The notes below the pieces were generated by a model. The model searched no databases, was not told the origin of the DNA, and worked only from the letters and a program-made list of their open reading frames with translations. This document shows, in pieces, positions 17,086 through 60,805 of a stretch of 64,000 nucleotides of DNA (positions are counted from its first letter, which is position 1; each line of letters opens with the position of its first letter). A program made the position numbers and the translations under genes. This stretch comes from an uncultured Bacteroidales bacterium. Its GTDB lineage: Bacteria > Bacteroidota > Bacteroidia > Bacteroidales > JAADJA01. The stretch is from assembly GCA_963749345.1 (NCBI GenBank), contig CAVVMO010000001.1:1011336-1075335 (forward strand), written 5' to 3'.

Positions 17086-20000
17086 ATGAAAAGACCAGGT
17101 TTAGTTTTATCCTTTTTTGCATTGATGTTCGTGACTAATCATACCATTTCACAGACCGAAGGCGAAATCAAGGTAGACGAAAACACATTTGGAGCTATTG
17201 AAGTGCGCCATATAGGCCCTGCTGCCATGAGCGGAAGGATTGCTTCATTGGATGCTGTTCAAAACGATCCCCGCATCATCTATGCCGGAAGCGCAAGTGG
17301 CGGCCTTTGGAAAACGACGAACGGCGGAGTTATTTTCAAACCCATCTTTGATAAATACAATCAAAGCATTGGCGCTATTACTATTGATCAGAACCATCCC
17401 GATACAGTTTGGGTGGGAACAGGAGAGAGCTGGGTCAGAAACAGCACCTCAGTGGGTGATGGGGTTTATAAAACTACGGACGGAGGAGAAAACTGGAAAA
17501 AGGTTGGACTGGAAAACGCAGAACGGATTGGTAAAATTATTGTCCATCCTAAAGATCCAAATATAGTTTATGTAGCTGCCCTGGGTCATCTCTGGAACAG
17601 CAATGAAGAGCGAGGTATTTTTAAAACCACTGATGGTGGCGCTACCTGGGAAAAAATCCTATACATAAATGACAGCACTGGTTGCTCCGATCTGGCGATT
17701 GATCCTGAAAATCCGGAAATCCTTTACGCCGCCATGTGGCAGTTCAGGAGGTATCCCTATTTCTTCAACTCAGGTGGACAAGGAAGCGGCCTCTACATCA
17801 GCCGGGATGGTGGAACCAACTGGTCAAAAGCAACTGAAGGGTTACCAACCGGAACCATCGGGAGGATTGCATTAACTGTATCACCGGCTAAACCGGATAT
17901 TGTTTTTGCAGTTATAGAATCCGAAAAATCCGCACTGTACCGCTCTGATAACAAAGGGATTTCCTGGACGAAAATGAATGATAATCCTGATTTAGGATCC
18001 CGTCCGTTTTACTTCTCATTTTTGCTTGCCGATCCGGTTGACACAAACCGCGTTTATAAACCAGGTTATTACCTAAGTTATAGCGAAGATGGCGGAAAGA
18101 CTTTCAAAGCCACCTATGTTGCCGGAGGTAGCGTCCATAGCGATATTCATCCTATCTGGGTCAGTAAAAAAGATCCAAGCCTGATGTATGTAGGAACAGA
18201 TGGCGGACTGTATGTTTCGAATGACCGTGGAAGTTCGTGGCGGTTCATCCGTAACCTGCCTGTTTCGCAGTTTTATCATGTAACGGTGGATAATAAAAAA
18301 CCTTACTTTGTCTATGGAGGACTTCAGGACAATGGATCCTGGATGGCGCCATCCAAAAGCCCGGGAGGAATAGAAAACCGGGATTGGAGCAACGTGGGTG
18401 GTGGAGATGGATTTTATGTTTTTCCTGATAAGTATGATGAAAACATTATTTACTGGCAATACCAGGGAGGCAACATCATGCGCAAAACAATGGATACCCG
18501 TGAGACCAAAGAAATAAAACCTTTTGCGAAAGAAGGAGAAACAGAATTGCGTTTTCACTGGAATACGCCCGTTGTATTCAGCCCGACAAGAGATGCAATG
18601 TATGTCGGTGCGCAGTATTTATACCGGACTACAACCAAAGGTGACGTATGGGAAAGGATTTCACCCGACCTGACAACCAACAATCCTGAAAAGCTTAAAC
18701 AATTGCAAACCGGTGGAGTAACTATCGATAATACGACTGCTGAAAACCACTGTACAATTTATACGATCAATGAATCTGCCCTCGATCCGGATGTAATCTG
18801 GGTAGGTACTGATGATGGGAACCTTCAGATGACCAAAGATGGAGGCAAATCGTGGATAAATGTTGCAGCCAATGTTTCCGGCCTGCCATCCGGCACATGG
18901 GTAAGTTATGTTTATCCTTCCCGGTTTGATAGGGGGATGTGCTATGTAACTTTCGACGGGCACATGACGGGTGATATGAAGCCCTATTTATTCAAAACAA
19001 TGGATTATGGACAAACCTGGGTTTCGATCGCTGATGAAAACGTCAAAGGTTTTTGTCATGTTATATTAGAAGACCTTGTGAACCCTGAGCTATTATTTTT
19101 AGGTACAGAATTCGGGCTCTTTGTTTCGATTGATGGCGGCAAGGTCTGGTCGCAATTTAAAGGCAACATGCCCAAAGTGCCGGTGCGCGACCTCGTGATA
19201 CAGGAAAGGGAAAACGACCTGGTGATCGGAACTCATGGCAGGGGAATTATGATCATTGACGACATCACACCCTTGCGGCTCCTGTCGGAAGAAATTTTGC
19301 AAAAAGATGTGGCGTTCCTTGACTCACGGCCATTTGAGCTCGGGCATCTCGACTGGGAGCAGGGATGGGCGGGTGATGATGAATTTACCGGCTCTAATCC
19401 TCCCGGATCAACTCTCATTAATTATTACCTTAAAAAACGTCATGTTTTTGGAGATATGTTTATCGAAATTTACAATGATAAAGGTGAAAAAATTAAGGAA
19501 TTACCTGCCGGCAAGAGGAAAGGATTAAACAGGGTATATTGGCAAATGCAGATGAAAGGGCCAAAGGTTCCGCGGTCTCCTTTGCTTTCACCACAGGCCA
19601 TGTATGGCCCAACCTATCCTCCGGGAAAATATACTGTCAAAATTATAAAGGGAGATCAAACCTATGAAGGACAGGTAACGGTAGTATACGACCCGACCAT
19701 TCCGCATAGCATGGCCGACCGTGATAAACGTTACGAAATCCTGATGAAGGCCTACAACCTGCTCGAAGACCTTGCTTATACTGATAAAGTAGTAACCGAA
19801 ATCCGTGACCAGGCAAAGGAAAAATCAGCAAAAGCCAACAATAAATCCTTAGGTAAAAAGCTTACAGTTGTGTCGGAAAGTATGGAAACACTTCACAAAG
19901 AACTTGTCGCTACCAATGTTACTTCTGCCATTACCGGTGAGGAGAAACTCAGGGAAAAGATTGGGGATATTTACAGCGCGGTGAACGGTTACCAGGGACG

Positions 20001-20178
20001 ACCGACGCAAAACCAAATGGACAGGCTGCAAATATTATCAAAACAAGTTACCGAAAAGAAGACAGGGCTTGAACCCATTTTGACAACTGATATTCCCAAC
20101 CTGAATACCCAATTGGAAAAGAAAAAAATCGATCCTTTCAAGCTGACGACAAAGGAAGAATTTCTGAAAGAGGATTAG
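17086..20178 (+). CDS. Secreted BNR/Asp-box repeat protein, sortilin/VPS10-like beta-propeller family (paralog of 2127..5441)
   Basis: 1030-aa ORF with a signal peptide and Asp-boxes (TTDGGENWKK, TTDGGATWEK, SRDGGTNWSK, SNDRGSSWRF, TKDGGKSWIN, SIDGGKVWSQ). Shared blocks include RHIGPAAMSGRIASL versus RSIGPAFTSGRIADF, and LFLGTEFGLFVSIDGGKVW versus LFVGTEFGCFFTIDGGKIW. Confidence 0.8.
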   Translation: MKRPGLVLSFFALMFVTNHTISQTEGEIKVDENTFGAIEVRHIGPAAMSGRIASLDAVQNDPRIIYAGSASGGLWKTTNGGVIFKPIFDKYNQSIGAITIDQNHPDTVWVGTGESWVRNSTSVGDGVYKTTDGGENWKKVGLENAERIGKIIVHPKDPNIVYVAALGHLWNSNEERGIFKTTDGGATWEKILYINDSTGCSDLAIDPENPEILYAAMWQFRRYPYFFNSGGQGSGLYISRDGGTNWSKATEGLPTGTIGRIALTVSPAKPDIVFAVIESEKSALYRSDNKGISWTKMNDNPDLGSRPFYFSFLLADPVDTNRVYKPGYYLSYSEDGGKTFKATYVAGGSVHSDIHPIWVSKKDPSLMYVGTDGGLYVSNDRGSSWRFIRNLPVSQFYHVTVDNKKPYFVYGGLQDNGSWMAPSKSPGGIENRDWSNVGGGDGFYVFPDKYDENIIYWQYQGGNIMRKTMDTRETKEIKPFAKEGETELRFHWNTPVVFSPTRDAMYVGAQYLYRTTTKGDVWERISPDLTTNNPEKLKQLQTGGVTIDNTTAENHCTIYTINESALDPDVIWVGTDDGNLQMTKDGGKSWINVAANVSGLPSGTWVSYVYPSRFDRGMCYVTFDGHMTGDMKPYLFKTMDYGQTWVSIADENVKGFCHVILEDLVNPELLFLGTEFGLFVSIDGGKVWSQFKGNMPKVPVRDLVIQERENDLVIGTHGRGIMIIDDITPLRLLSEEILQKDVAFLDSRPFELGHLDWEQGWAGDDEFTGSNPPGSTLINYYLKKRHVFGDMFIEIYNDKGEKIKELPAGKRKGLNRVYWQMQMKGPKVPRSPLLSPQAMYGPTYPPGKYTVKIIKGDQTYEGQVTVVYDPTIPHSMADRDKRYEILMKAYNLLEDLAYTDKVVTEIRDQAKEKSAKANNKSLGKKLTVVSESMETLHKELVATNVTSAITGEEKLREKIGDIYSAVNGYQGRPTQNQMDRLQILSKQVTEKKTGLEPILTTDIPNLNTQLEKKKIDPFKLTTKEEFLKED

Positions 20179-23462: not shown

Positions 23463-23650
23463 TGTACAACTTTTATATCACAAAAGTATATCAAAATAGT
23501 ATATAATCAACTATCTATGGCAAATAAAATTTCCAGCATGCGGCACAATAGTGACCTTTTGGTGGCTGGCGGATGAATGGATAGAAGTTTCAAACTTGCG
23601 GTGGCGGAGGGCATATTAATGTACGATAGACATTGCTGTAGGTCGCGTAT

Positions 23651-43160: not shown

Positions 43161-44585
43161 TCACCACACCGGCTCCTCCTTCAGGGCTATTTTTCCTTTT
43201 CCCGAATTTATATTAAAACCAAACGAAAAGTTGATCCGGTTTCTCGATACATTCGGATTTTTCAGATTCATATATTCATAATTCAACTTTACATTGAAAG
43301 ACTGTGAACTCCAAAAAACACCAGCTTTTGGAACCAGCAAAAATGCATCTTCCGGTTTCCTTTCTGATCCCCGAAAATTCCCGTATGTATAGGCAATATT
43401 TAGCCCTGCGAATACTCCACTTTTCTTCCGAACCGTTTTTTTAATAACTGAAAATAATTTATTCGCTCCCACATGCATAACCGACCTGCTTTCCCAGAAC
43501 TGGTAATAAGTAGTTGGATTTATTTCGTAAAGAATAGTTCTTACCCCTGTTCTTGTTTTGTACCCCGCTTGAAACTCAATACCATATTTTGTTGAAGCAA
43601 AACCCAGGGTGCCACCGATCATAAAATCATCAAAATTTCCATTAAGATCCAAATTAACCATGACCCGGTCAACAAAAGGTGCCGGAAGATTACTTGCACC
43701 TTTTAGCTGAAGCAATTGCAGCATCTCGTTATCTGCAAATTCTTGTGCAAGGGTGTATTGATTTCTGGTACCCGAAATCTTATGGTCTGGATTAGCACCG
43801 CTTTGTATGAGCAATTCAGCTGTTTCATGGTGACGGTTGATAATAGCAAAAGACAACGCTGTCAGGTTGTCTTCATTCACGGTATCAACGACTGCACCGT
43901 TTTGTATATAAAGATCAGCCAGGTAACTGTAGCCTTTTTGAGCGGCAATCATCAATGGTGTAAATCCTTTGTTGTCACCCACGTTTGTTTTAGCCTGCTT
44001 TTCAATCAGCAACTCAGAGACTCCTGATGAGCCATAATAACTAGCATAATGCACAGCTGTGTTCCCCTTAACATCCTGCTTATTCAGATCAGCCTTGTAA
44101 AAGATCAGCATATCTGCCATGAGGGAATCGTTATAAGTGGCTGCTATCATAAGAGGTGTGATTCCATCCAAGTTTTTTGTGTTTACATCGGCTCCATTCA
44201 GGATAAGCGTATCTGCAATATACACATGACCAAACATACAGGCACCCAGCAATGCGCTGACATGATTTACCGGCAAAGTATTTTCATTTGCACCCTTGTG
44301 AAGGAGTATTCTTACCGTTTCCAGATGCCCGTTTTGTGCTGCATACATCAAGGGTGTCACTCCTTCATAGGAGGATTTGCAATTTACATCTGCACCTTTT
44401 TCAATCCATTTAATGACTTTGGTTGTATCTCCTTCACTTGAAGCCAGCAACAATTCCAGATTCGGATCGGGGATAGTTTGCGAAGTATCCGCTTCCGCAA
44501 TTTTATCATCATTCTGGGCAATACATATTACGGAGGTAAAAGTTAGTAAAAAAGCTGCAATAAGATTTACATCTACATACTTCAT
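43161..44585 (-). CDS. Ankyrin-repeat protein with a predicted C-terminal outer-membrane beta-barrel-like domain
   Basis: 474-aa ORF with a signal peptide and about 8 ankyrin repeats (for example GVTPLMYAAQNGHLETVRILLHKGANEN, GITPLMIAATYNDSLMADMLIFYKADLN, GFTPLMIAAQKGYSYLADLYIQNGAVVD). The last ~190 aa show an alternating hydrophobic beta-strand pattern ending in RINFSFGFNIN. Confidence 0.7.
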   Translation of the reverse strand: MKYVDVNLIAAFLLTFTSVICIAQNDDKIAEADTSQTIPDPNLELLLASSEGDTTKVIKWIEKGADVNCKSSYEGVTPLMYAAQNGHLETVRILLHKGANENTLPVNHVSALLGACMFGHVYIADTLILNGADVNTKNLDGITPLMIAATYNDSLMADMLIFYKADLNKQDVKGNTAVHYASYYGSSGVSELLIEKQAKTNVGDNKGFTPLMIAAQKGYSYLADLYIQNGAVVDTVNEDNLTALSFAIINRHHETAELLIQSGANPDHKISGTRNQYTLAQEFADNEMLQLLQLKGASNLPAPFVDRVMVNLDLNGNFDDFMIGGTLGFASTKYGIEFQAGYKTRTGVRTILYEINPTTYYQFWESRSVMHVGANKLFSVIKKTVRKKSGVFAGLNIAYTYGNFRGSERKPEDAFLLVPKAGVFWSSQSFNVKLNYEYMNLKNPNVSRNRINFSFGFNINSGKGKIALKEEPVW

Positions 44586-49091: not shown

Positions 49092-49284
49092 GTAACCGCT
49101 GAATCGCTATGAAGATGTTGCACTGCAAGTAATCTATTGCAAGTTTAAAAATAGGCGCTATCCGTGTCATAAAAATATGGATAAAATAAAATGCAACTTA
49201 TTAATTAGTGCAAATCCAGAATTTAGTTGATACTGATTTTTCTTTATTAGCGTGCATTCTATCAAAATGCCAAAACCATATTTG

Positions 49285-49326
49285 AAAGAAAAAACAAAGC
49301 GTGCAGCTACAATCCACACGCTTTTG
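49285..49326 (-). terminator. Rho-independent terminator downstream of the 1405-aa gene (hairpin usable in both directions)
   Basis: Stem AAGCGTG (49297-49303) pairs with CACGCTT (49317-49323). It is followed on the minus strand by TGTTTTTTCTTTC and on the plus strand by TTG. Confidence 0.6.
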
Positions 49327-49377
49327 TCTACTTTATAAAGTCTTCGCACTTTTATTTAGGCATTTATAATTTTTACT

Positions 49378-52300
49378 TTAATCTTTAATACAACGAACAA
49401 CAAAACCATGTACTTTGGTTTCATAAGATCGTCCATATCCTCCACTTGATTTGTTAAGGTTTCGATAAATTGATTGTGTTTCCGAAAATTCAGTCGAAGT
49501 CCAGATATAGGTTGATAATTTTATCTCAGCAAAAACAGGACCAATAGGACTTACTTGACGACTTAAACCTGCACCAAGGAAAGATAAACCACTTGAGTTT
49601 GTTGCTCCAGTATTTGGCTCATCCCAATGTAAATATCCAGTTTCTTTAATCATCCCGCCTACATTACTTCCTGCCGGCCAACCCCAAGAATAACATTCTA
49701 AAGTCGGATCAAGAAAAGTCATTAAAGTGCAATATTCGTCATCAGTTGGCATATGCCAGCCTTCAGGACAAATTCCAACATTACTCTCACCTGTACTATA
49801 TTGCATTGCTTCATTCCATTGATATAATCCGCCATAAATCAAACAATTATTTTCATTATTTTCATAACAATACTTTTGGATTATACCATCATCTGATTGA
49901 TCAATTGGGAAATCAATCATGGTTCCGATATTCATGTTTTCAGCCATCCAGCATTGAGTTCCTATTTGGACAGTTGAATAAGATTGGCCATCACGAATGT
50001 CAATAATTCCTTCACCACAAGGTACAGATGGAATTGTAACTGTTATAATAATACCTTTCCCACTATTAGGTTTCCACTTAATAATTTTATCATCAATTTC
50101 TACCTGGCTGTTCATATTATAGTCTCCATTATAGTAACCTGTTAAACCCAATTGGGTAAGCCATACATCATTTTTATCCAGGTTATTTATCAGTCCGTCG
50201 GAATTTCCATCAGCAGCGATCATACCCCAAACATTTGGAGTTAGCTGACTTTGCGAATGAGAACCGCCAAGACCAGTGTTTGAAGAAACTGTAAAATCAT
50301 AATTATAAATACCGGCTGATCCTGTAATAGGAAAAGAAGATATAATCGGCAAATGATTCCGATGAATGACCCTCAGATAAAAATTTTCCGGCGGTAATTC
50401 AGGAAAATCTAGAGGAGAGGTTCCGTCAATATCCCTTACGACTCCATCATTAAATACAAATGCAGCTTTTCGGCTTATTGCAACATAATTTGTATCATTG
50501 CCTGAGATTAATTTTTGAAGTATTTCAATAAGCACCCAGTCGATAATATTAACGGATGGGATATTTATTACAGATTCATTTCCCAGGTATTGCCATGGCG
50601 CTGAATTATATGGCTGATCTAACGGTAAATATCCTAATGCATTTAAGAAGTTTGACATTTGACCGCTGAAATATGGCCCCTCAAGAAAAACTTTAATATT
50701 TATTGCTTTTGAAAGGGTGGTAAATGTATACGGACCTACCCATGCACTATTGCCATAGTTATTACTACAATTAGCTCTAACATAAAAATCATATTCAGTG
50801 TTTGCTAATAAGTTATTATAGTTGTATGGATTAGATGAAATATTGGATGCTGTTGGCACACCTGTTGGTATGAAACCAGCAGTGTCCAATTCAATTTCCC
50901 ATGTTGCAGCACTTCCGTTCTCTATCCAACCTAAGTTTGCAGAATAATGAGTTATGTTGGTAACAAACAAGTTAGAAGGTTCGGGACAAATACCTTCATC
51001 AACTGAAATGTTGTCAATAAATAGGTCAGAGCCAAAACCGGATATTCCATTACACTTTATTAAAATATTATCCCCAAAAGAAGAAAGATCAATAATTCCT
51101 GAAGAAATAAAGCTACCAGGTATCTGGTATGCTGCACCATCATTTGAATTAAAGTCCGGACCTCCAAGCGACCAAACTTTCGACCAACTAAAAGCATTGT
51201 CATCTGAAACAAAAACTTCTAAAGAATCATTCAATAACGTAGGATAGGGTATGTGAGACCAGAAAAATTCAAGTGAAGGAGTTTCTAGAGCTGATATATC
51301 AATAGTGTTTGTTATCATTAAACAATTATTGTTTTGATTGACAGACCAGAAGTTTGCTAATGCACTTCCTTGGGTAGAGGAAGGGGCATAATGCATCCAA
51401 CAAAAGGACCCTCCACTGAGGTCGAAACATAGTGGTGGCCAGGTAGAAAATGTTTCATAAAATGGTGCTATGAAAGAAGGGCCTTTGGTTGAAAATGACT
51501 TTGGTCCCGACCAAAAACTGGTTTCCTCCTCAGTGCAGACGGACCTAACATAAAAATCATAATTTGTACATGAAGTCAAATTTTCATAATTATATGAATT
51601 TGATTGCACACCGGTAACTGTTGGGATTCCTGTAGGAATAAAACCTATAGGTCCAAATTCTATATCCCATGATGTAGCTGAACCGGTTTCTAACCATTGA
51701 AGAGTTGCTGTTGTTTCCATCACATCAATGGCATCAAGTTCAATTGGAGCAGAACATGAATAAAAAGAAATATTGTCTAAAAGAAGATAAACTTGATTTG
51801 GTTCGCTGTAACCGTGAAAACCGATAAAATATACACCGCTGGTAGTGGGTGTAATTGTGCCAGTTCCATCATGCCATACATTGCTATATTGAATTGCTGC
51901 ATCATTGAAAATGGGACCATTAGTCATTGCTACTGAATTCGCTTCTAATCCCCACTTTACTTCTAATTTCTCAAAATAAATTGAAGAATTGTTTGTATAT
52001 TTAAAATTCAAAGTATATGTTGTTCCAGATGAAAGCCAGAATCCTGGGGTAAAGAACCAGTCATCCATTGCCAGGGAGGAATTATATCTCACATACAAAA
52101 CATTCGGTAAAGAAGGGGGATTTAATGCATTTGCATATGTTTGCCAGTAATAGGGATCTATATTGGTATTTTCATAGGTTGTGCAATTCGGTAACGCAGG
52201 TGCTGTTACCGAATCGAAATTCTGGAAATAGGGAAGCGAGACTATCTGACATATCGTAATGAAAGTCCATACAGGTCCATTTGTTGTAAGAGTACCATTG

Positions 52301-53595
52301 TGCTCAATAACCTGCCATTGATATGTGCTACCATAATCTGCTGTATATGTGTAGGAGCCAGTAGAACCAGCAATACCACCAGTAACAACCTGAACCATGC
52401 TTCCAGGATGCCCGAATTTAAGATCATAGGTTACAGTATTTGCTCCAAATGACCATGTTAAATTACCACTAATTTCAATATTTGCTGCTCCATCCGCTGG
52501 ACTGGGATTGAATGGATCAAAGGGAGTTCCCCCAACAGGTGGTATATAAGTAAAGATCAATCCACTGCTAGGATATACCGTGTTTGACATTATGCATGAT
52601 GCTGTATTGGAAGTACCTGCGGTCGTGGATGACCAGTTTGTAGTTGTAGTTCTATTATTATAATCATTATTATTTGCTCCTCTAATTCCAACCTGACCGG
52701 TTGTTAAAGCTGAATACCCAACATGATTACCATAGACAATTTCAGCTTTATTGGATGTTTCGTAAAGTTTGATTTGGAAATTATATAGTTCTCCATAATA
52801 AGTAGACCCATATCTTTTGAAATTTTTGAACTGAATTACATGAATCCGATTTGGGGAAGAACCCAAAGTTTGCGTTCTGATTTCAGCAGTATAAGCAATA
52901 CAGGTTTGCAAAGTACCTGTCGCTGTGGCATTGGCAGATAAAGTGATTGTCTGTGCTCCCGCGTTAAATGAAACAATGGTGGCGCCTGCTGGTATATTTG
53001 CAGAGGTAACTTGTTTCCCTACAACAATACCACCAAAATGAGATACAGACGACAGAACAGGGCTTCCCAAAGTTGTGGTTGCCTGGAAAACAAAACGGCC
53101 ATCATTATCCCGACTAAAAGCAGCGATTGCACCAGCATAATCTGTGGTCGCTGATATTGCCGTATAATTGTTATTAAGTGGAAGAGTTGTGCCAAATGTT
53201 ATATAACCATTAGAATTTATATTAAAATTAGTGTACGGCAAATCATTAAAAGTAAATGTAAATGGTATCGTTTGCATAGAATAATTAACATCATCCAAGT
53301 AATTAGTTCCACTGCCAGGAATTGAACTAGCAACCACAGTTCCTCCTGTAATTAGAGTATAAGTACCCAATGATTGACTAAATGTGTAGCTGGTGGCAGC
53401 ATCAGAGGGATAATCTATTTTAATGATTAAACCAGTTGTATTCTCAATAGAATTCAGTGTTGAATTTTCTATTATTTTATCATTGCCTGAATTTTGATAA
53501 TCTTTATATACGTCATTTTGAGCTTGAATTGTAATAATTGATAAAATGACCATTACCAAAAACGAAACAAGTGATAGCTTTAAAAGTTTTTTCAT
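49378..53595 (-). CDS. Giant secreted multidomain surface protein: two adhesin-like modules each followed by an FN3-like domain, a dockerin-like module and a C-terminal FISUMP (Fibrobacter succinogenes major paralogous, TIGR02145-like) domain
   Basis: 1405-aa ORF with a signal peptide. Two ~90-aa FN3-like repeats are present: CSAPIELDAIDVMETTATLQWLETGSATSWDIEFGPIGFIPTG...YDFYVRSVC at nt ~51487-51756, and CPEPSNLFVTNITHYSANLGWIENGSAATWEIELDTAGFIPTG...YDFYVRANC at nt ~50716-50988. The dockerin-type loops are DGNSDGLINNLD and DYNMNSQVEIDD. The C-terminus (DGQSYSTVQIGTQCWMAENMNIG...YGGLYQWNEAM...CPEGWHMPTDDEY...ATNSSGLSFLGAG...IWTSTE...HGFVVRCIKD) matches the FISUMP pattern. Confidence 0.8.
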   Translation of the reverse strand: MKKLLKLSLVSFLVMVILSIITIQAQNDVYKDYQNSGNDKIIENSTLNSIENTTGLIIKIDYPSDAATSYTFSQSLGTYTLITGGTVVASSIPGSGTNYLDDVNYSMQTIPFTFTFNDLPYTNFNINSNGYITFGTTLPLNNNYTAISATTDYAGAIAAFSRDNDGRFVFQATTTLGSPVLSSVSHFGGIVVGKQVTSANIPAGATIVSFNAGAQTITLSANATATGTLQTCIAYTAEIRTQTLGSSPNRIHVIQFKNFKRYGSTYYGELYNFQIKLYETSNKAEIVYGNHVGYSALTTGQVGIRGANNNDYNNRTTTTNWSSTTAGTSNTASCIMSNTVYPSSGLIFTYIPPVGGTPFDPFNPSPADGAANIEISGNLTWSFGANTVTYDLKFGHPGSMVQVVTGGIAGSTGSYTYTADYGSTYQWQVIEHNGTLTTNGPVWTFITICQIVSLPYFQNFDSVTAPALPNCTTYENTNIDPYYWQTYANALNPPSLPNVLYVRYNSSLAMDDWFFTPGFWLSSGTTYTLNFKYTNNSSIYFEKLEVKWGLEANSVAMTNGPIFNDAAIQYSNVWHDGTGTITPTTSGVYFIGFHGYSEPNQVYLLLDNISFYSCSAPIELDAIDVMETTATLQWLETGSATSWDIEFGPIGFIPTGIPTVTGVQSNSYNYENLTSCTNYDFYVRSVCTEEETSFWSGPKSFSTKGPSFIAPFYETFSTWPPLCFDLSGGSFCWMHYAPSSTQGSALANFWSVNQNNNCLMITNTIDISALETPSLEFFWSHIPYPTLLNDSLEVFVSDDNAFSWSKVWSLGGPDFNSNDGAAYQIPGSFISSGIIDLSSFGDNILIKCNGISGFGSDLFIDNISVDEGICPEPSNLFVTNITHYSANLGWIENGSAATWEIELDTAGFIPTGVPTASNISSNPYNYNNLLANTEYDFYVRANCSNNYGNSAWVGPYTFTTLSKAINIKVFLEGPYFSGQMSNFLNALGYLPLDQPYNSAPWQYLGNESVINIPSVNIIDWVLIEILQKLISGNDTNYVAISRKAAFVFNDGVVRDIDGTSPLDFPELPPENFYLRVIHRNHLPIISSFPITGSAGIYNYDFTVSSNTGLGGSHSQSQLTPNVWGMIAADGNSDGLINNLDKNDVWLTQLGLTGYYNGDYNMNSQVEIDDKIIKWKPNSGKGIIITVTIPSVPCGEGIIDIRDGQSYSTVQIGTQCWMAENMNIGTMIDFPIDQSDDGIIQKYCYENNENNCLIYGGLYQWNEAMQYSTGESNVGICPEGWHMPTDDEYCTLMTFLDPTLECYSWGWPAGSNVGGMIKETGYLHWDEPNTGATNSSGLSFLGAGLSRQVSPIGPVFAEIKLSTYIWTSTEFSETQSIYRNLNKSSGGYGRSYETKVHGFVVRCIKD

Positions 53596-53650
53596 TGATT
53601 TATAAAATTTATTGATTTAAAAATAAAAAAAAGTCTATCATCTTAAAATT

Positions 53651-53683
53651 CATCCTACCCACTTTTGTAAGTAGGGTAGGATA
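53651..53683 (-). terminator. Strong hairpin between the small ORF and the giant gene (weak U-tract; possible terminator)
   Basis: ATCCTACCCACT (53652-53663) pairs with AGTAGGGTAGGAT (53670-53682), giving 12 bp with one bulged A. On the minus strand it is followed by GAATTTTAAG. Confidence 0.4.
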
Positions 53684-53735
53684 AAAAGTAGTTATTATTT
53701 GCGAAGAATGTTTGCTATATATCATTTAAAACATT

Positions 53736-53981
53736 TTAAATGCTTATTTCACCTCCACCATAAATCCCCTTCAAGCTTGCATCCGGATTGTAAACCATGA
53801 GGAATGTATTACCGGCAGCGCCAAGCTGGGCAGGGGTAAATTCATCTTCTTTGCCGGGCTGAAGTTCGGGGGCGGTTTCAGGTACAGGATTATCTGCCTT
53901 GGCAGCAGTGTAGAAGCGCAACGGGGCATCACCAGTGTTTTCGACGGTAAATACTGAGGCTGCAGTAAACCCGTCTTTCAT
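53736..53981 (-). CDS. Small acidic orphan protein (81 aa from the ATG at 53981), GC-rich; possibly the 3' remnant of a larger gene
   Basis: Sequence MKDGFTAASVFTVENTGDAPLRFYTAAKADNPVPETAPELQPGKEDEFTPAQLGAAGNTFLMVYNPDASLKGIYGGGEISI. By hand count, 122 of 246 nt are G+C (about 50%), against visibly AT-richer flanks. The supplied ORF extends to 54233 through AT-rich sequence. Confidence 0.4.
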   Translation of the reverse strand: MKDGFTAASVFTVENTGDAPLRFYTAAKADNPVPETAPELQPGKEDEFTPAQLGAAGNTFLMVYNPDASLKGIYGGGEISI

Positions 53982-54269
53982 GATGATCACCTTTGCGGCA
54001 GAATTTACGGAACCGGAGAATGCAAGGACACATTGAGGGTTTTTTATAGTATTGCAGATATTAAAATTATGGGTTATCAATGTTTTAAATTTGATGCAAG
54101 TAAAATTATAATCGAAAAATTGCTTAAAAACAATATGATCAAACTGGTGTAGGAAGGGCATGAATTTTTTGAGGAAATGATGTGTTTGGATTAGGAAACT
54201 ATTGATTATTTTTAAACCCGGTAAATAAATCATGATTCTGAATCCATTTATTTAAATAAAAATCATTCG

Positions 54270-56369
54270 GTGACGGAAGGAAAACATAATTCGGGAAGTT
54301 GGCCTATACTTATCAATCCTTATATATTGGCATTGGTGGCTTCCTTAATAATTATTTTGCTTCTGCCAATGGACTTCCCTAAATATAAAATTGAAATAAT
54401 TGATAACCAGGTGCATCAAAGTAATAATTTCAGGATTTTTGATGATCTGGATAATAATGGTTATAGCGATGAAATAAACCTTGCGAACAACTTTATCGGC
54501 TCAACCGGATTATCCGTCAGATTTAATCCACACAACATAATAGAACAATGGAATTTTCAGGGAAGCAATATTTTTGTTTCTAAGGAAAACTTAATTATTG
54601 GTGACTTTGATAACAATTTGATTAAAGAAATATATGGTTTTACAATTTCAAACGACAGTATTTTTCTAAACTGGGTACCAAATATTACAGGTAAGGAAGT
54701 CAAACAGAGATTCATCACTAAGGTGCGTATAAAAAAAGGTAAATGCGACCCGGTTAATATTCCTCTTGAAATGGACGACCTGGATGGAGATGGTTACAAG
54801 GAATTGCTTTTTGGCATCAATACCGGATTTTCAGTTCAGCCTAGAAATGTTTTTGCATATAACATTGTAAGCGACTCATTGAAACAAAGCCCCAAAAGTG
54901 CAGCTGCATTCATAGATATATTTCAGTACGATGTTACCGGTGATGGCTTGAATGAAATATTACTTTATACTTATTCTCCTGAAAATCTGCACGACACAGG
55001 ATATCAATACCACGACAGCAGCGCCTGGATGATGGTTCTTGACAGAAAACTGGAATATTTATTTCCCCCAATTGAGATCAAAGGACGCTGGGGAACAGTC
55101 ATGCCGATAATTTTCAGAAATACAGGTTTACAGCTGATCTTCGGAGCAATGCATTATTGGCGCGACACTAATCATATTGGAATGAAAATGATGCTGCTTG
55201 ACACAATAGGCAACATTATAAAAGAACAGGTTTGTGACCCAGTGCCACCCAATGCAACAATTAAATTTTTCCAAACCTTTAGCAAAAGAGGAGATTACGC
55301 AGTAATTTCAACCGGAAATGAAATTCGTATTTATGATCAGTTCCTTGATCTTGATAGGGAAATTCCCTTAAACCAAAGGATATCTTGTCAGCATCAAATG
55401 GATCTGGATTTGGATGGCAGCAATGAAATACTATTGTATGCTACCGATAATAAATTGAGAATTTTCAGAGAAAATATGAAGCATCCTGCGATAATAGATA
55501 TAAGTAATATGGCCGATGAATATAACACTGCATTTTCATTAGTTAAAGTACCCGGCTTGCTGCCATTAATTTCGATTTTTTCTAATAATAAATGGTATTT
55601 GATTTCGTATGCCCTTAATCATATGTTTTATTGGCGGTGGGCAATCTATGCTGCCATATATTTAAGTGTTTTAGTATTTACTTTATTCGTACAGAAAATC
55701 CAGCGTATTCAACTCCAGAGCAAGTACAATACCGAAAAGAAAATTACTGAGTTGCAGCTAAAGATTATAAAAAACCAGCTCGACCCGCATTTCGTACTCA
55801 ATGCCATTAATTCAATCACCAGTTCGGTTTCCAACCAAAAAAAGGAAGAAGCTACTGAACATTTGCAGCAATTCTCTCAAATGTACCGGTCGCTGGTTTT
55901 GTCATCGGACAAGATCACACGCACATTGACTGAGGAGATTGCTTTTACTGAAAACTACCTGAAAATGGAGCAGTTCAGGTTTAGCATGAAGTTTCAATAT
56001 TCCATTGTTATTGATCCGGCCATTGATACAACAATTGAAGTCCCCAAGATGATCGTTCAGTCGTACACTGAGAATGCCATTAAGCATGGATTGGCAGGCA
56101 GAAAGGAAGGAGGAGGCATACTTGAAATAATGGCTAAGCAATTTGACCAAAAGTTAATCCTTACCATCAAAGACAATGGAGGTGGAAGAAAAGAATCTGC
56201 ACAGGCAGGATCTACTTCAACCGGCAAAGGCGTTGAAATGATGAACAACCTCTACGATCTGTACTATAAAATAACCAACAGAAAAATTACGGGTGAAATA
56301 GTGGATTTATATGACGATGAAGAGAAATCAGCGGGAACAAGCGTTATCGTAACAATTCCAATTAATTAA
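54270..56369 (+). CDS. Sensor histidine kinase, LytS/His_kinase (PF06580-like) type, with an extracytoplasmic FG-GAP/VCBS-like beta-propeller sensor domain
   Basis: 699-aa ORF with a GTG start and a first TM segment. The ~400-aa external region carries Ca-binding-type loops (DDLDNNGYSDEINL, GDFDNNLIKEIY, DDLDGDGYKELLF, DVTGDGLNEILLY, DLDLDGSNEILLY). A second TM segment (WAIYAAIYLSVLVFTLFV) follows, then the H-box (LKIIKNQLDPHFVLNAINSI) and the ATPase domain (ENAIKHG, DNGGG, STGKGVEMMN). Confidence 0.8.
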   Translation: MTEGKHNSGSWPILINPYILALVASLIIILLLPMDFPKYKIEIIDNQVHQSNNFRIFDDLDNNGYSDEINLANNFIGSTGLSVRFNPHNIIEQWNFQGSNIFVSKENLIIGDFDNNLIKEIYGFTISNDSIFLNWVPNITGKEVKQRFITKVRIKKGKCDPVNIPLEMDDLDGDGYKELLFGINTGFSVQPRNVFAYNIVSDSLKQSPKSAAAFIDIFQYDVTGDGLNEILLYTYSPENLHDTGYQYHDSSAWMMVLDRKLEYLFPPIEIKGRWGTVMPIIFRNTGLQLIFGAMHYWRDTNHIGMKMMLLDTIGNIIKEQVCDPVPPNATIKFFQTFSKRGDYAVISTGNEIRIYDQFLDLDREIPLNQRISCQHQMDLDLDGSNEILLYATDNKLRIFRENMKHPAIIDISNMADEYNTAFSLVKVPGLLPLISIFSNNKWYLISYALNHMFYWRWAIYAAIYLSVLVFTLFVQKIQRIQLQSKYNTEKKITELQLKIIKNQLDPHFVLNAINSITSSVSNQKKEEATEHLQQFSQMYRSLVLSSDKITRTLTEEIAFTENYLKMEQFRFSMKFQYSIVIDPAIDTTIEVPKMIVQSYTENAIKHGLAGRKEGGGILEIMAKQFDQKLILTIKDNGGGRKESAQAGSTSTGKGVEMMNNLYDLYYKITNRKITGEIVDLYDDEEKSAGTSVIVTIPIN

Positions 56370-56377
56370 ACTGAAAT

Positions 56378-57127
56378 ATGCAAAACCGGCAACTAAGGAC
56401 AATTATAGTAGATGATGAGGAAAAGGCAATAAATAATCTGGAAACCCTATTGAATAATTTCCCGCAGGTTCAGATCATAGATAAATCAACAGATCCTGAA
56501 AAGGCATTGGGTAAAATACTGCTCCAAAAACCCGATTTACTATTTATGGATATTCAAATGCCGGATAAAACAGGGTTTGAAATCGTATCAGAAGTTTATC
56601 GGAGTGGATTAAGACCCGACATTATATTTGTAACAGCTTTTGATAAGTATGCCATCACTGCCATTCGTTATGCTGCATTCGATTACCTGCTGAAACCAGT
56701 TAACAAGGAAGAACTTAAAGATGCGTTGGAACGGTTACTGAAAAAAACAACTGAAACAGATAAGGAGGAACAGATTAAAATACTTATCGAGAAAACGAGT
56801 AGACATAAAATCAAATTCTCAAATGCAGGCGGATTCATTCTTATTAAACCCGAGGATATTATTTACATCGAGGCCGACTGGAATTATTCCGAAATTTATT
56901 TCAGCAAGGAAATAAAGGAAGTCGTTACAATGAATATCGGAAGTGTTGAAGAACTATTACCAAAAGAAGATTTTTACAGGATCAATCGTTCAATAATCAT
57001 TAATATTAACTACCTTTCGAGGGTAATTCGTAAAAAGCTTTTGGCCATACTTATTAAAGATGGCCAGGAATACCAGTTCAAAATACCAATATTAAAAATC
57101 CGGGGACTGGAAAGGTTTTTAGCTTAA
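56378..57127 (+). CDS. LytTR-family (LytR/AlgR) response regulator
   Basis: 249-aa ORF. The receiver domain reads IIVDDEEKAI...DLLFMDIQMPDKTGFE...FVTAFDKYA, and the LytTR domain reads IIYIEADWNYSEIYF...FYRINRSIIININYL. It starts 8 nt after the kinase stop codon. Confidence 0.9.
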   Translation: MQNRQLRTIIVDDEEKAINNLETLLNNFPQVQIIDKSTDPEKALGKILLQKPDLLFMDIQMPDKTGFEIVSEVYRSGLRPDIIFVTAFDKYAITAIRYAAFDYLLKPVNKEELKDALERLLKKTTETDKEEQIKILIEKTSRHKIKFSNAGGFILIKPEDIIYIEADWNYSEIYFSKEIKEVVTMNIGSVEELLPKEDFYRINRSIIININYLSRVIRKKLLAILIKDGQEYQFKIPILKIRGLERFLA

Positions 57128-57322
57128 GGAATAATATTAATCTATCAGATCCTGTAACTTCCCTAGCAGCCGCAAGTTTATAACTTTTATCAATAAGTAA
57201 CTTATTTTCCTTTATTTAAAACAAATTATGTTTTGGTTAATAATTATTTTTCAAATCACTAATTCTTAATTGAATGATGATTTGTTAGATTGTTAAAATC
57301 TAATTTTTGGAAGACTTTTTAT

Positions 57323-57358
57323 GAAAAAAAAGAGACTACCTTTGTCAGGTAATCTCTT
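57323..57358 (-). terminator. Strong Rho-independent terminator immediately 3' of the tRNA-like gene
   Basis: On the minus strand, AAGAGATTACC-tgacaaa-GGTAGTCTCTT forms an 11-bp stem with one G-U pair, followed by TTTTTTTT. Confidence 0.75.
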
Positions 57359-57362
57359 GTTA

Positions 57363-57435
57363 GCAGGGAGGAGGGGCTCGAACCCTCATCAGTCTAGTTA
57401 GTTCTAGAATATCTATCCAGTTGACTACTTCCTGC
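57363..57435 (-). tRNA. tRNA-like sequence, non-canonical (probable tRNA pseudogene or relic, or an atypical tRNA-derived RNA)
   Basis: Minus-strand sequence: GCAGGAAGTAGTCAACTGGATAGATATTCTAGAACTAACTAGACTGATGAGGGTTCGAGCCCCTCCTCCCTGC. The T arm is perfect (GAGGG-TTCGAGC-CCCTC), and U8/A9/A14/GG-like positions are present if G1 is treated as a -1 base. The acceptor helix is 8 bp with one A-C mismatch and the D stem has only 3 bp. The only good anticodon stem (TCTAG/CTAGA) encloses a 6-nt loop, AACTAA, which contains CTA. No CCA is encoded. Confidence 0.45.
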
Positions 57436-57440
57436 TTGTT

Positions 57441-57465
57441 AGGACTGCAGCAACAGTCCTTTTTT
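57441..57465 (+). terminator. Hairpin plus T-run (plus-strand terminator-like), 5 nt from the 5' end of the tRNA-like gene
   Basis: AGGACTG-cagcaa-CAGTCCT followed by TTTTT. Confidence 0.5.
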
Positions 57466-58129
57466 AATCCAAAACAAAAGTACTATCAGTCAAAGGTACA
57501 ATGCAACTTCATTTATAAACATTTGATTGTTGTTAAAATGCTATCCCCTTGAATTCAACTGAAGTAGATTGCGGAAAGATGATTTAGTAACAATGTATTG
57601 ATAAAAAAATGAGGCTTTCGTATAATTGAATAATGATATACCAAAGTCAGGCAGCCAAGGCCTTCCATGAATTTTTGTTTGGACAAGAATGTAATGACTA
57701 TAATTAAATTTTTTCAAAAATCAATAAAAACATATAAAATTTAATGACGGGGTTATTTAATAGTTCCTTTTTTATTCGTAATAAAATCTCCCCGTGTCAC
57801 CGCAAGTTTGTAATTTGTTGCAAGAAATACCAGCGCCTGTGTATGTCACATAGGATCCCCCCGCTGGCGCAAGCATCTCCCCCTTTAACATTAAAATATT
57901 TCCTCATTAAATTCAAATATTCTTAAATTTGCCTTACTCAAAAGCAGGAAATGAAGCAACGAACCTTTTCATACTTTTTAATTTCACTAAGGGAAAATGT
58001 AAATTTTATTCCCGTTTACACACCTGTATGGAACAAAAACGGGAATAAAGTTCATGTTATAGTAACGTAAACGTTCATTGTAAAAAAAGACAACAGACAA
58101 AAATAAATTAACCATTTAATTGTATAATT

Positions 58130-58930
58130 ATGAAAAAGAACTACAGAATTTGGATTTACTCATTAACATTAGTGGGTTTTATATTAGTTCTTGCAATTGG
58201 TTGTAAGAAAGATGAATCGCCATCAAAGAAAACTCCATTAATCACCTGGGCAAATCCTGAAGATATTGTTTATGGTACCTTGCTAAGCGCGACCCAGCTA
58301 AACGCCACAGCTGATGTAGAAGGTACCTTTTCTTACACTCCCCAGATTGGCACATTACTGGATGCAGGCGCTAATCAGGTTTTGAAAGTGTCCTTTACGC
58401 CAGCCGATGCCGAAGCCAACGATACCGCAAGCAAAACAGTGAAAATTAATGTACTTTATATAGGCGATAGCTATAGAGGTGGTAAAGTAGCCTATATTTT
58501 ACAAGCAGGAGACCCAGGCTATGCAGCTGCAGAAGCACACGGTTTAATAGCCGCACCAGGCGACCAAAGTACAGGCATACAATGGTATAATGGAAGCTAT
58601 ACAACAACAGGAGCAACTGCAACAGCATTAGGCACGGGGAATGACAACACAGCCACTATTGTTGCCAGTCAGGGAGCAGGCAGCTATGCAGCGAAATTGT
58701 GTTCTGATTTGGTATTAGGTGGCTATTCCGACTGGTTTTTACCCAGTAAAGATGAGTTAAATAAGCTCTACATAAACAGAGCAGCGATTGGTGGTTTTGC
58801 TAATGAAAACTATTGGAGTTCCAGCGAGGCCGGCACCAACGCCGCATGGAAGCAGAGCTTCACCACTGGCATGCAGGGTGGCCTCTATAAAAACAACGAC
58901 TACTATGTGCGCTCGGTTCGGGCTTTTTAA
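58130..58930 (+). CDS. Lipoprotein with an Ig-like N-terminal region and a C-terminal DUF1566 (Lcl C-terminal-like) domain
   Basis: 266-aa ORF with lipobox LAIGC. The C-terminus (GGYSDWFLPSKDELNKLY...NYWSSSE...AWKQSF...YYVRSVRAF) fits the DUF1566 pattern. Confidence 0.75.
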   Translation: MKKNYRIWIYSLTLVGFILVLAIGCKKDESPSKKTPLITWANPEDIVYGTLLSATQLNATADVEGTFSYTPQIGTLLDAGANQVLKVSFTPADAEANDTASKTVKINVLYIGDSYRGGKVAYILQAGDPGYAAAEAHGLIAAPGDQSTGIQWYNGSYTTTGATATALGTGNDNTATIVASQGAGSYAAKLCSDLVLGGYSDWFLPSKDELNKLYINRAAIGGFANENYWSSSEAGTNAAWKQSFTTGMQGGLYKNNDYYVRSVRAF

Positions 58931-59245: not shown

Positions 59246-59344
59246 CTTGTCTGATTATTATTTCCATTCCTCTGCTGATTTTAGATTATTGTGTTTGTCC
59301 ATGACTGAAATAGGTTGACCAAAAATAAGATAAAAAGTCAACTT

Positions 59345-59767
59345 ATGGAAACAAAGCAAAAAGGGAAAAAGGGGTTAAGGCTCCGACGTCATTTCAGTGT
59401 AGGGATAAAGAAACAAGTAGTAAGGGATATTGAAAAAGGAAAGTGTACTGTATTGGAAGCCAGTCGTGAGTTGGGAGTAAGTTTTCAAACTGTGTACCTC
59501 TGGCTTTATAAGTATAGTTTATATTTGCAAAAAAACAAGATACTTATAGTGGAAGATAAAAGCGAAGCCTATCGCAGCAAAGACCTTGAGAAACGGATAT
59601 TAGAATTGGAAGCTGTTTTGGGGCGCAAGCAAATGGAAATTGATTTGCTCAACAAAGTAATTGAACTGGCCAACGGAGAATACAAGACAGATTTAAAAAA
59701 AAGCATGTTAAAGAAGCCCTTGGATGGTTCCGGCTCAATAAAGGGATCAAGCACTTCTACAAGATGA
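59345..59767 (+). CDS. IS3 transposase OrfA (HTH plus leucine-zipper region)
   Basis: METKQKGKKGLRLRRHFSVGIKKQVVRDIEKGKCTVLEASRELGVSFQTVYLWLYKY..., followed by a coiled-coil region. The ATG at 59345 is preferred over the TTG at 59315, which lies inside IRL. Confidence 0.8.
   Translation: METKQKGKKGLRLRRHFSVGIKKQVVRDIEKGKCTVLEASRELGVSFQTVYLWLYKYSLYLQKNKILIVEDKSEAYRSKDLEKRILELEAVLGRKQMEIDLLNKVIELANGEYKTDLKKSMLKKPLDGSGSIKGSSTSTR
59695..59701 (+). promoter_or_regulatory. Programmed -1 ribosomal frameshift heptamer A_AAA_AAA in orfA
   Basis: The orfA frame reads TTA AAA AAA AGC. The -1 frame is open from here (KKHVKEALGWFRLNKGIKHFYK) into the orfB ATG at 59764, which would give an OrfAB fusion. 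Confidence 0.6.
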
Positions 59768-60696
59768 AAGAGTTATATTCGATAGCCAACATAAGTAAGC
59801 AGGCACTGTGGAAGCATGACAGGCGGCAGGAAACAGTCACAGCAATCACAGGGCAGATGGTAGATATAATGGAAGACATCAGACAACGACATAAACGTAT
59901 GGGATGCAGGCGGATGTACTATGCGACTCAGGGAACTTTACCTGTAGGCAGGGATCTGTTCGAGAAAATCGGTTTTGCCAATGGTTTCAAGTTGCGGCGT
60001 AAACCAAATACAATAAAAACCACCTGGGGTCAAAGAGTAGAGGTTCATCCCAACCTGATCGAAGGCAAAATACTCACTGACATCAACCAGGTGTGGCAAA
60101 GCGACATTTTCTACATCAAGATAGAAGGAAAAGACTATTACGGAGTAAGCATAGAAGATGTATACTCAAGAAAAATGCTATCCATGCACATTTCAAAAAG
60201 CCTGCAGGCAGAACAAGTTGAGAACGCCTTAAAAAAGGCAATCAAAGTAAGAAAGAACATGGATTTAACCGGCTGTATCTTTCATTCGGACCGTGGCAGC
60301 CAATACATCAGTACCCGGATAAAAAAACTCTTGCGCGACACACAAATGCAAATCAGTATGTGCAAAATACCGCAGGAGAATGCCTATGTCGAACGTGTGC
60401 AGGGAACCCTCAAGTACGAATACTTGTATGAATTTGATTTAACCGAAAAGAATTTGCCTAACACGATTCGTAAAATACTGGAATATTATAACAAGGAGCG
60501 CCCTCATAGTAACTTAAAGATGAATAATCCTGAAAGATTTGAATTAGAAGTTGAAAAGCTTGTTGAAAAACAACGTCCAAAACTCCAGATATACAAATGG
60601 ACTCATGGGGTATCAACAAAAGAAGATGATATTAACAAAAAAGAAAAAAGTAGCAAAAAAGAAAAAATGAATACAATAAAAACAAATAGTATTTAA
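59764..60696 (+). CDS. IS3 transposase OrfB (rve/DDE integrase core)
   Basis: 310-aa ORF containing WQSDIFYI (D), FHSDRGSQYIS (D) and ENAYVERVQGTLKYE (E). Its ATG overlaps the orfA stop (ATGA). Confidence 0.9.
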   Translation: MKELYSIANISKQALWKHDRRQETVTAITGQMVDIMEDIRQRHKRMGCRRMYYATQGTLPVGRDLFEKIGFANGFKLRRKPNTIKTTWGQRVEVHPNLIEGKILTDINQVWQSDIFYIKIEGKDYYGVSIEDVYSRKMLSMHISKSLQAEQVENALKKAIKVRKNMDLTGCIFHSDRGSQYISTRIKKLLRDTQMQISMCKIPQENAYVERVQGTLKYEYLYEFDLTEKNLPNTIRKILEYYNKERPHSNLKMNNPERFELEVEKLVEKQRPKLQIYKWTHGVSTKEDDINKKEKSSKKEKMNTIKTNSI

Positions 60697-60805
60697 TTGA
60701 AAAAAGTCAACCTATTTCAGGCAAGTACAGTTAATCAGATTTCATATATCCTATTTCGGATTTCAAAATTTATTTTACTTTTGCCACGTATTCAGGTCGA
60801 AAAAT

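Follow-up and report, generated by a model that had tools for sequence, protein, structure and literature searches.

Beside a genomic island of Bacillus cereus stands the pseudo-tRNA tRNA-Other, which has no part in translation and is linked to regulatory phenotypes (PMC3399842). It has a readable Trp anticodon, occurs in several Bacilli, and is documented by measured expression, weak lysylation, and deletion phenotypes (PMC3399842). Irregular and allo-tRNA-like sequences have been tied to transposable elements or toxin–antitoxin loci (Mukai et al., PMC5389517; review PMC7609411); allo-tRNAs combine a long variable arm with a 12-bp branch divided 8/4 or 9/3 (PMC5389517). YrlA and other bacterial Y RNAs carry tRNA-like acceptor, T, and D elements in a nondecoding small RNA, and in YrlA a long Ro60-binding helix replaces the anticodon arm (PMC4201824). 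The gene for bacterial tRNA-His encodes one more G at the 5′ end, which pairs with C73 and gives an 8-bp acceptor on a 5-bp T stem; histidine identity in bacteria depends mainly on this G-1:C73 pair, which is enough for HisRS to charge 13-bp minihelices (PMC9976931).

The element described here lies in a 64,000-nt stretch of DNA from an uncultured Bacteroidales bacterium, the whole of which was analyzed and is called the window below. It is another case of a known class, the pseudo-tRNA and tRNA-like genes on accessory DNA, combining tRNA ancestry with failed decoding features and a strain-variable location. Judged by likeness, its nearest described analogue is the B. cereus tRNA-Other: both are tRNA-shaped, unassignable by gene finders, carried on island or strain-variable DNA, and thought to be nontranslational, and both may be part of, or processed from, a longer RNA. 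Unlike tRNA-Other, the element has a 6-nt anticodon loop and no homologs were found for it; it is known here from sequence alone. The reading that we modestly favor is that of a strain-specific, probably transcribed, nondecoding pseudo-tRNA on variable DNA.

As in bacterial tRNA-His, an encoded extra 5′ G (57435) pairs with a C at the position of C73 (57363), and the 8-bp acceptor stands on a 5-bp T stem; GUG, however, is absent from the anticodon loop AACUAA, the first pair is C1-G72, the acceptor contains an A·C mismatch, and the loop is aberrant; in sequence, the two share nothing more than generic tRNA features. Allo-tRNA-like sequences and the element share a noncanonical cloverleaf, a lengthened acceptor (sometimes with G-1), and a place on accessory DNA, but the element has an 8/5 branch (13 bp), a variable loop of only 5 nt, and a shortened anticodon loop, none of which is the allo-tRNA arrangement. 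Irregular allo-tRNA-like sequences have proved unusable for translation in tests, whereas the element is judged nondecoding from its sequence. The 13-bp acceptor/T helix with its 8/5 branch is also that of bacterial tRNA-Sec, although the element lacks the long variable arm, the 6-bp D stem, the UCA anticodon, and any match to RF01852. The likeness to the bacterial Y RNAs lies in the acceptor, T, and D elements. YrlA is located beside rsr/rtcB; no Ro60 (TROVE) domain was found among the scanned neighbors of the element, and no Rfam match supports YrlA.

Anatomy and candidate transcription signals

The tRNA-like body occupies 74 nt of the minus strand (57435..57362) and forms a cloverleaf that was read from the sequence and drawn identically by ARAGORN -ps; its extent rests on that drawing, on the coordinates of its parts, on pairing statistics, and on a unique T arm. 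In minus-strand order it runs GCAGGAAG-TA-GTC-AACTGGATA-GAT-AT-TCTAG-AACTAA-CTAGA-CTGAT-GAGGG-TTCGAGC-CCCTC-CTCCCTGC-T. The acceptor strands GCAGGAAG (57435-57428) and CTCCCTGC (57370-57363) face each other at eight positions, seven of them Watson–Crick and one A·C. Between the 5′ acceptor strand and the D arm stand U8 and A9 (TA), followed by a D arm, GTC-AACTGGATA-GAT (57425-57411), with a 3-bp stem and a GG within its loop. The linker from the D stem to the anticodon stem consists of two bases (AT) instead of one, and so contains an extra base. The anticodon arm TCTAG-AACTAA-CTAGA (57408-57393) has a fully paired 5-bp stem and a 6-nt loop (57403-57398), and it is followed by a 5-nt variable loop, CTGAT (57392-57388), by a textbook T arm, GAGGG-TTCGAGC-CCCTC (57387-57371), and, after the 3′ acceptor strand, by a discriminator-like U (57362). 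CCA is not encoded at the 3′ end of the body. Part by part, this anatomy matched the initial annotation, which had listed the T arm, the GG-containing D loop, the 3-bp D stem, the eight-position acceptor with its A·C mismatch, and the 6-nt loop.

The acceptor/T-arm half is kept almost perfectly. Eight acceptor positions and five in the T stem form a 13-bp helix, in which the extra pair is G-1:C73 if the acceptor is read as one of 7 bp. The tertiary nucleotides U8, A14, G18, G19, and the entire T-loop set (G53, T54, Psi55, C56, A58, C61) are retained; the departures, both in the D loop, are C at position 15 in place of R15 and U at position 21 in place of A21. In the naked transcript the cloverleaf has a folding energy of -18.4 kcal/mol, versus -21.5 for an alternative pairing of the D/anticodon region, and is thus 3.1 kcal/mol less stable. 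The thermodynamic minimum is therefore not the cloverleaf, and only the top of the acceptor and the T arm are robust across the ensemble.

Signals flanking the body have the layout of a monocistronic tRNA gene: a promoter-like site, a leader of ~35 nt, the body, and a terminator. The candidate Bacteroidota-type promoter (57475..57507, minus strand) consists of a -33 GTTG (57507-57504) and a -7 box TACTTTTG (57482-57475) that lie 21 nt apart; the box stands ~40 nt upstream of the body, and transcription is predicted to start at ~57470. Sites of this GTTG/TAnnTTTG kind are the housekeeping promoter type of Bacteroidota. TAnnTTTG is enriched in the window (98 copies, versus 74.8±9.6 in shuffles), and at least 10 of the 45 long ORFs have it, correctly oriented, 13-45 nt before their start; we infer promoter function for the candidate site from its sequence. 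The two hairpins noted at the outset, one upstream of the body and one directly 3′ of it, were both recovered by the terminator scan and by folding. The former (57441..57460, minus strand) has an 8-bp stem and a 4-nt loop and lies in the leader, with 5 nt between it and the body. Six T residues (57461-57466) follow it on the plus strand, and it may also stop read-through on that strand from the convergent response-regulator gene. The latter is an intrinsic terminator (57322..57358, minus strand) that starts 3 nt after the body and comprises a 12-pair stem (57358-57330), a 5-nt loop, and a U-run. Transcribed from a promoter of its own, of Bacteroidota type, the gene would yield a primary transcript of ~145 nt containing the 5′ hairpin leader, the tRNA-like body, and the terminator.

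The strain-variable segment

The element sits in the largest noncoding gap of the window (57128-58129), between a LytTR response-regulator gene that ends at 57127, convergent with the element, and an Lcl_C/DUF1566 gene that starts at 58130 (Pfam). By its gene content the window is Bacteroidota chromosome; its other genes include F-ATPase alpha and GldG, with ccoS/ccoN at the right end. Two close relatives, L014 and L016, were reached by homology search with the Lcl_C protein, and both were aligned to the window by blastn. These alignments, together with Pfam annotation and junction alignments, delimit a strain-specific segment of 8.7 kb (49092..~57857) that contains a Fib_succ_major surface protein, a 165-aa ORF, a histidine kinase, the LytTR response regulator, and the tRNA-like gene. 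On both sides of this segment L014 follows the window collinearly at 93-95% nucleotide identity, and it passes from the stop codon of a P-type ATPase gene (window 49091) to window position 57858 with ~94 bp of its own sequence between; its similarity to the window resumes at ~57830-57858. L016 shares the left junction, with other sequence as its filler. The nearest homologs of the adjacent histidine kinase are 52% and 43% identical and keep the kinase/regulator pair; at these loci, neither a spacer nor a tRNA-like gene follows the response regulator. None of the neighboring proteins is a tRNA-related or tRNA-using enzyme, a HisRS paralog, Ro60 (TROVE), RtcB, or a protein of defense function. 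The element marks a small recombination hot spot, in this Bacteroidales lineage, between a cbb3-oxidase-associated ATPase gene and the cco genes.

Between the genes for the cbb3-associated P-type ATPase and Lcl_C, the intergenic site (49092-58130) is hypervariable, and three close relatives fill it in three ways, with 8.7 kb in the window, ~94 bp in L014 (7683-7776), and ~180 bp plus a 2047-bp insert in L016 (5661-8040). The insert in L016 is flanked by a 28-bp duplication of window 58037-58064. An IS3-family insertion sequence (59296-60732; orfA 59315-59767, orfB 59764-60696, inverted repeats TGACTGAAATAGGTTGAC) lies 2 kb from the element, and the same site in L014 and L016 is without it.

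A direct repeat of ~30 nt (CCGCAAGTTTRTAAYTT) bounds a 630-bp module (57170-57800) that holds the tRNA-like gene. Its left copy (CCGCAAGTTTATAACTT..., 57170..57199, plus strand) lies 43 nt after the stop codon of the response-regulator gene, and its right copy (CCGCAAGTTTGTAATTT..., 57800..57829, plus strand) stands at the right edge of the strain-specific segment; further copies occur at 23571-23600 (minus strand) and, in degenerate form, at ~49138 (49125-49160). The family has the form CCC-N5-6-CMSCCGCAAGTTTRWAAYTT with a palindromic core AAGTTTnnAAACTT, and its exact 10-mer occurs three times, against ~0.1 expected from the sequence length. Every copy lies ~45-50 nt after a stop codon, and copies stand at both ends of the strain-specific segment and on either side of the tRNA-like module. 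The repeat looks REP-like or att-like, and it may have mediated rearrangements here. The CCGCAAGTTT repeat was also compared by eye with consensus sequences of integron attC, sigma-54, and the standard -7 box, and fits none of them. Upstream of the Lcl_C gene, at 57829-57880, there is a GC-rich inverted repeat (CCAGCG...CGCTGG) with CTCCCCC after it, a feature that L014 has conserved in part; the surrounding GC-rich region (57770-57900), considered as a riboswitch, gave no Rfam match at E<=1.

Searches for relatives of the element itself were negative. The 25-nt string of T arm plus acceptor had no match in one genome each of 185,579 species, and a pattern of D arm plus T arm had none in viral (IMG/VR) contigs or in JGI metagenome contigs. 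The loop combined with a degenerate T arm likewise gave no match in viral contigs, and seven in metagenome contigs, all of them unrelated and without a cloverleaf; two more scans of viral contigs returned zero matches and two coding-sequence coincidences. Short chance matches were all that blastn returned against phage and plasmid records, and a single-sequence covariance model built from the element found only the element itself in 227 kb of fetched loci. The element is an orphan, with no homolog detected in the collections searched.

Origin, decoding, and possible roles outside translation

The tRNA origin of the body is secure, because 20 of its 21 cloverleaf positions pair, its T arm is unique, U8, A14, and G18G19 are in place, and it is set exactly between the promoter-like and terminator signals. 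Among 20,000 dinucleotide shuffles the mean number of paired positions was 8 and the maximum 16; the 17-nt T arm occurs once in the window, where 0.04 occurrences are expected. The initial view that this is not random debris is borne out by the same pairing, by the unique T arm, and by the promoter-like site and terminator around the body. ARAGORN at default settings reports zero tRNA genes in the window, and at 95% of its threshold (-ps) it reports a 74-nt "Possible pseudogene, tRNA-?(Ser|Pyl)(ct)" with the same cloverleaf, a call that is weak evidence when taken alone, given four false calls in 40 shuffled windows (~0.1 per window). Rfam at gathering scores found nothing. The initial annotation had named background-level covariance-model scores as evidence against its reading, and for the claim of a standard tRNA such scores were what was observed, with no match to RF00005 (tRNA) or RF01852 (tRNA-Sec) at E<=10 on 57250-57550 (301 nt). 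The Rfam matches that did appear at E<=10 were unrelated families at chance level, among them a plus-strand Bacteroides BTnc049 (13.6 bits) that was judged noise. The relaxed ARAGORN call rate and a minimum-energy fold other than the cloverleaf could be taken to suggest a chance resemblance, or a mere cluster of terminator hairpins between convergent genes; against pairing beyond anything seen in the shuffles, and against a perfect GAGGG-TTCGAGC-CCCTC that coincides with U8, A14, and G18G19 exactly between a promoter-like site and a terminator, the probability of such an explanation is close to negligible. The element is real by this joint evidence, in which the ARAGORN -ps call is not decisive by itself.

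Whether a tRNA-derived gene of this kind could decode turns on the anticodon loop. The canonical loop has 7 nt with Y32, U33, and R37; here it has 6 nt, AACUAA, with A where U33 belongs and A at position 32, and opening of the closing G-C pair gives an 8-nt loop that is still without U33. Because there is no normal three-base anticodon without a 7-nt loop and the U33 turn, the RNA would take no part in ordinary translation. The initial annotation had raised the possibility of an assembly indel in a real, amber-reading tRNA, with the prediction that an extra base at the 3′ side of the loop would bring CUA to positions 34-36. The prediction itself was reproduced: one base added anywhere in the loop leads ARAGORN to call a tRNA at its default threshold, and a base added 3′ of the U gives the anticodon CUA. 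The indel proper found no support. CUA lies in the loop but reaches positions 34-36 only with an invented extra base, and 23 of the 24 distinct single-base insertions into the loop give no U33. U33 arises only if a T enters behind the first A, which would not be an error of the homopolymer type and would give the anticodon ACU; homopolymer-type repairs (AAACTAA or AACTAAA) retain A32 and A33. An assembly indel that hides a normal or amber-reading tRNA is unlikely, since repairs of a plausible assembly-error type lack U33, the ORFs of the window are unbroken, and TAG is an ordinary stop there. TAG usage had been proposed as a check, and in the window it ends six of the 45 long ORFs, which read normally under code 11. 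These 45 ORFs have no frameshift signs except the expected IS3 orfA/orfB overlap.

A genuine decoder, whether an amber (CUA) suppressor with a base lost in assembly or an RNA that works through an unusual loop of 6 nt (8 nt if the G-C pair opens), is accordingly to be weighed on two sides. Any base 3′ of the U yields the CUA call at default threshold, and the frameshifted genes found in the L014 and L016 assemblies suggest that long-read assemblies of this lineage are error-prone. Yet every such repair leaves A32 and A33 rather than Y32 and U33, homopolymers in the loop are no longer than two, and the unbroken ORFs imply a low local rate of indel error; C15, U21, and the extra linker base also set the RNA apart from a working tRNA, and Rfam is without a match. 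We consider a decoder very unlikely. An exact-protein look-up of the flanking genes found an independent short-read contig that spans the element, and contigs of run ERR12035938 carry the flanking proteins. Nor is this the anatomy of tRNA-Pyl, which has a small D loop without GG, no T-Psi-C, and a 3-nt variable loop; the body has GG, TTCGA, and a 5-nt variable loop, and no Pyl-related Pfam domain occurs among the neighboring proteins. Annotators should not call the element a suppressor tRNA.

A decaying tRNA at an old integration site had also been suggested, and of this suggestion the strain-variable setting stood: the element does lie in the 8.7-kb block, near one end of it, and both the segment and the 630-bp module have short direct repeats at their borders, as might be expected for a remnant of a core-genome tRNA gene used as an island attB. 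If it were an attB tRNA, relatives should have the tRNA at their unoccupied site, and the far end of the island should carry a second copy of its 3′ part. The unoccupied sites of L014 and L016, however, contain no tRNA or tRNA fragment (blastn and the element covariance model), and the element is set back ~400 bp from the right end of the segment, its 5′ rather than its 3′ end facing the junction. The proposed check for an intact paralog of the 3′ half found none in the window, and no other part of the element has a second copy there either; the segment, moreover, holds no integrase (Pfam), nor are the flanking repeats related to the tRNA-like sequence. An attB remnant is thus highly improbable. 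The tRNA-like gene is cargo of the variable DNA and not a core-genome attB tRNA, because it is missing from the empty sites, has no 3′-half copy in the window, and turns its 5′ end to the junction.

Function outside decoding is a possibility of another order, though still an unlikely one: the RNA could be a regulatory RNA, which the initial annotation had suggested, or a structural module of a larger RNA, roles proposed for the B. cereus tRNA-Other, or it could be a His-chargeable minihelix. On the last account, HisRS would charge the G-1:C73 minihelix and the aberrant anticodon arm would bar the RNA from the ribosome. The stems are intact and the deviations confined to loops, the gene has its own promoter-like site and strong terminator, and the 13-bp acceptor/T helix with G-1:C73 is seen directly; HisRS charges 8-bp microhelices as well as 13-bp minihelices that carry this pair (PMC9976931), and the island-adjacent pseudo-tRNA of B. 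cereus, with its regulatory phenotype, is a precedent (PMC3399842). Against these points, the collections searched hold no homolog and so offer no covariation or conservation that would point to selection, the element is dispensable, being absent from two close relatives, and no gene for a tRNA-using enzyme, HisRS paralog, Ro60, RtcB, or defense lies nearby. A terminal extra G:C pair, furthermore, has a sizeable probability of arising by chance. In tRNA-His the usual 1:72 pair is G1-C72, unlike the C-G of the element. A more specific version, in which the repeat-flanked 630-bp cassette makes a functional nondecoding tRNA mimic that is processed, CCA-tailed, histidylated, and kept off the ribosome, is distinctly doubtful. 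Such a mimic might act as an amino-acid donor, as a decoy or sensor for tRNA-binding proteins, or as a regulator, and, if it were true, would be a bacterial chromosomal analogue of the histidine-accepting viral tRNA-like structures. Were the RNA found to be stable and charged, the element would represent a rare bacterial chromosomal tRNA mimic, a histidine-type minihelix with a deliberately disabled anticodon arm, and would bear on the recruitment of pseudo-tRNAs to functions outside translation.

The modestly favored pseudo-tRNA reading holds that the element derives from a tRNA and has lost, or never had, the ability to decode; the intact acceptor/T-arm minihelix would probably remain a substrate of RNase P, 3′ trimming, and the CCA-adding enzyme, and the gene most likely came with, or remains from, horizontally moved DNA and would have no essential role. 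In its favor, the cloverleaf is recognized only below the default threshold of ARAGORN and is flagged there as a possible pseudogene, the collinear L014 is without 49092-57857, as is L016, and the nearby IS3 copy is strain-specific too. On the other side, all four stems are intact (with one A·C), the deviations lie in loops, and the promoter-like site and terminator are intact, whereas long neutral decay would be expected to break stems as well. Intact stems with deviant loops fit either recent arrival or selection on structure. If the element is merely a pseudo-tRNA, its practical value is limited.

Further features of the window

Several genes that are intact in the window—those for a 794-aa ATPase, a 541-aa protein, and the 266-aa Lcl_C protein—are split in the relatives (L014 5298-7560 and 9204-10857; L016 8132-8933), which suggests frameshift errors in the long-read-style metagenome assemblies of L014 and L016. 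Two large paralogous proteins of 1104 and 1030 aa are encoded at 2127-5441 and 17086-20178, and have sub-threshold matches to the F510_1955 glycosylhydrolase and Ycf48-like beta-propeller models. At 43161-44585, a gene for a 474-aa ankyrin-repeat protein has sub-threshold matches to models of Legionella Dot/Icm Ank effectors and MzaA, and is conserved in both L014 and L016.
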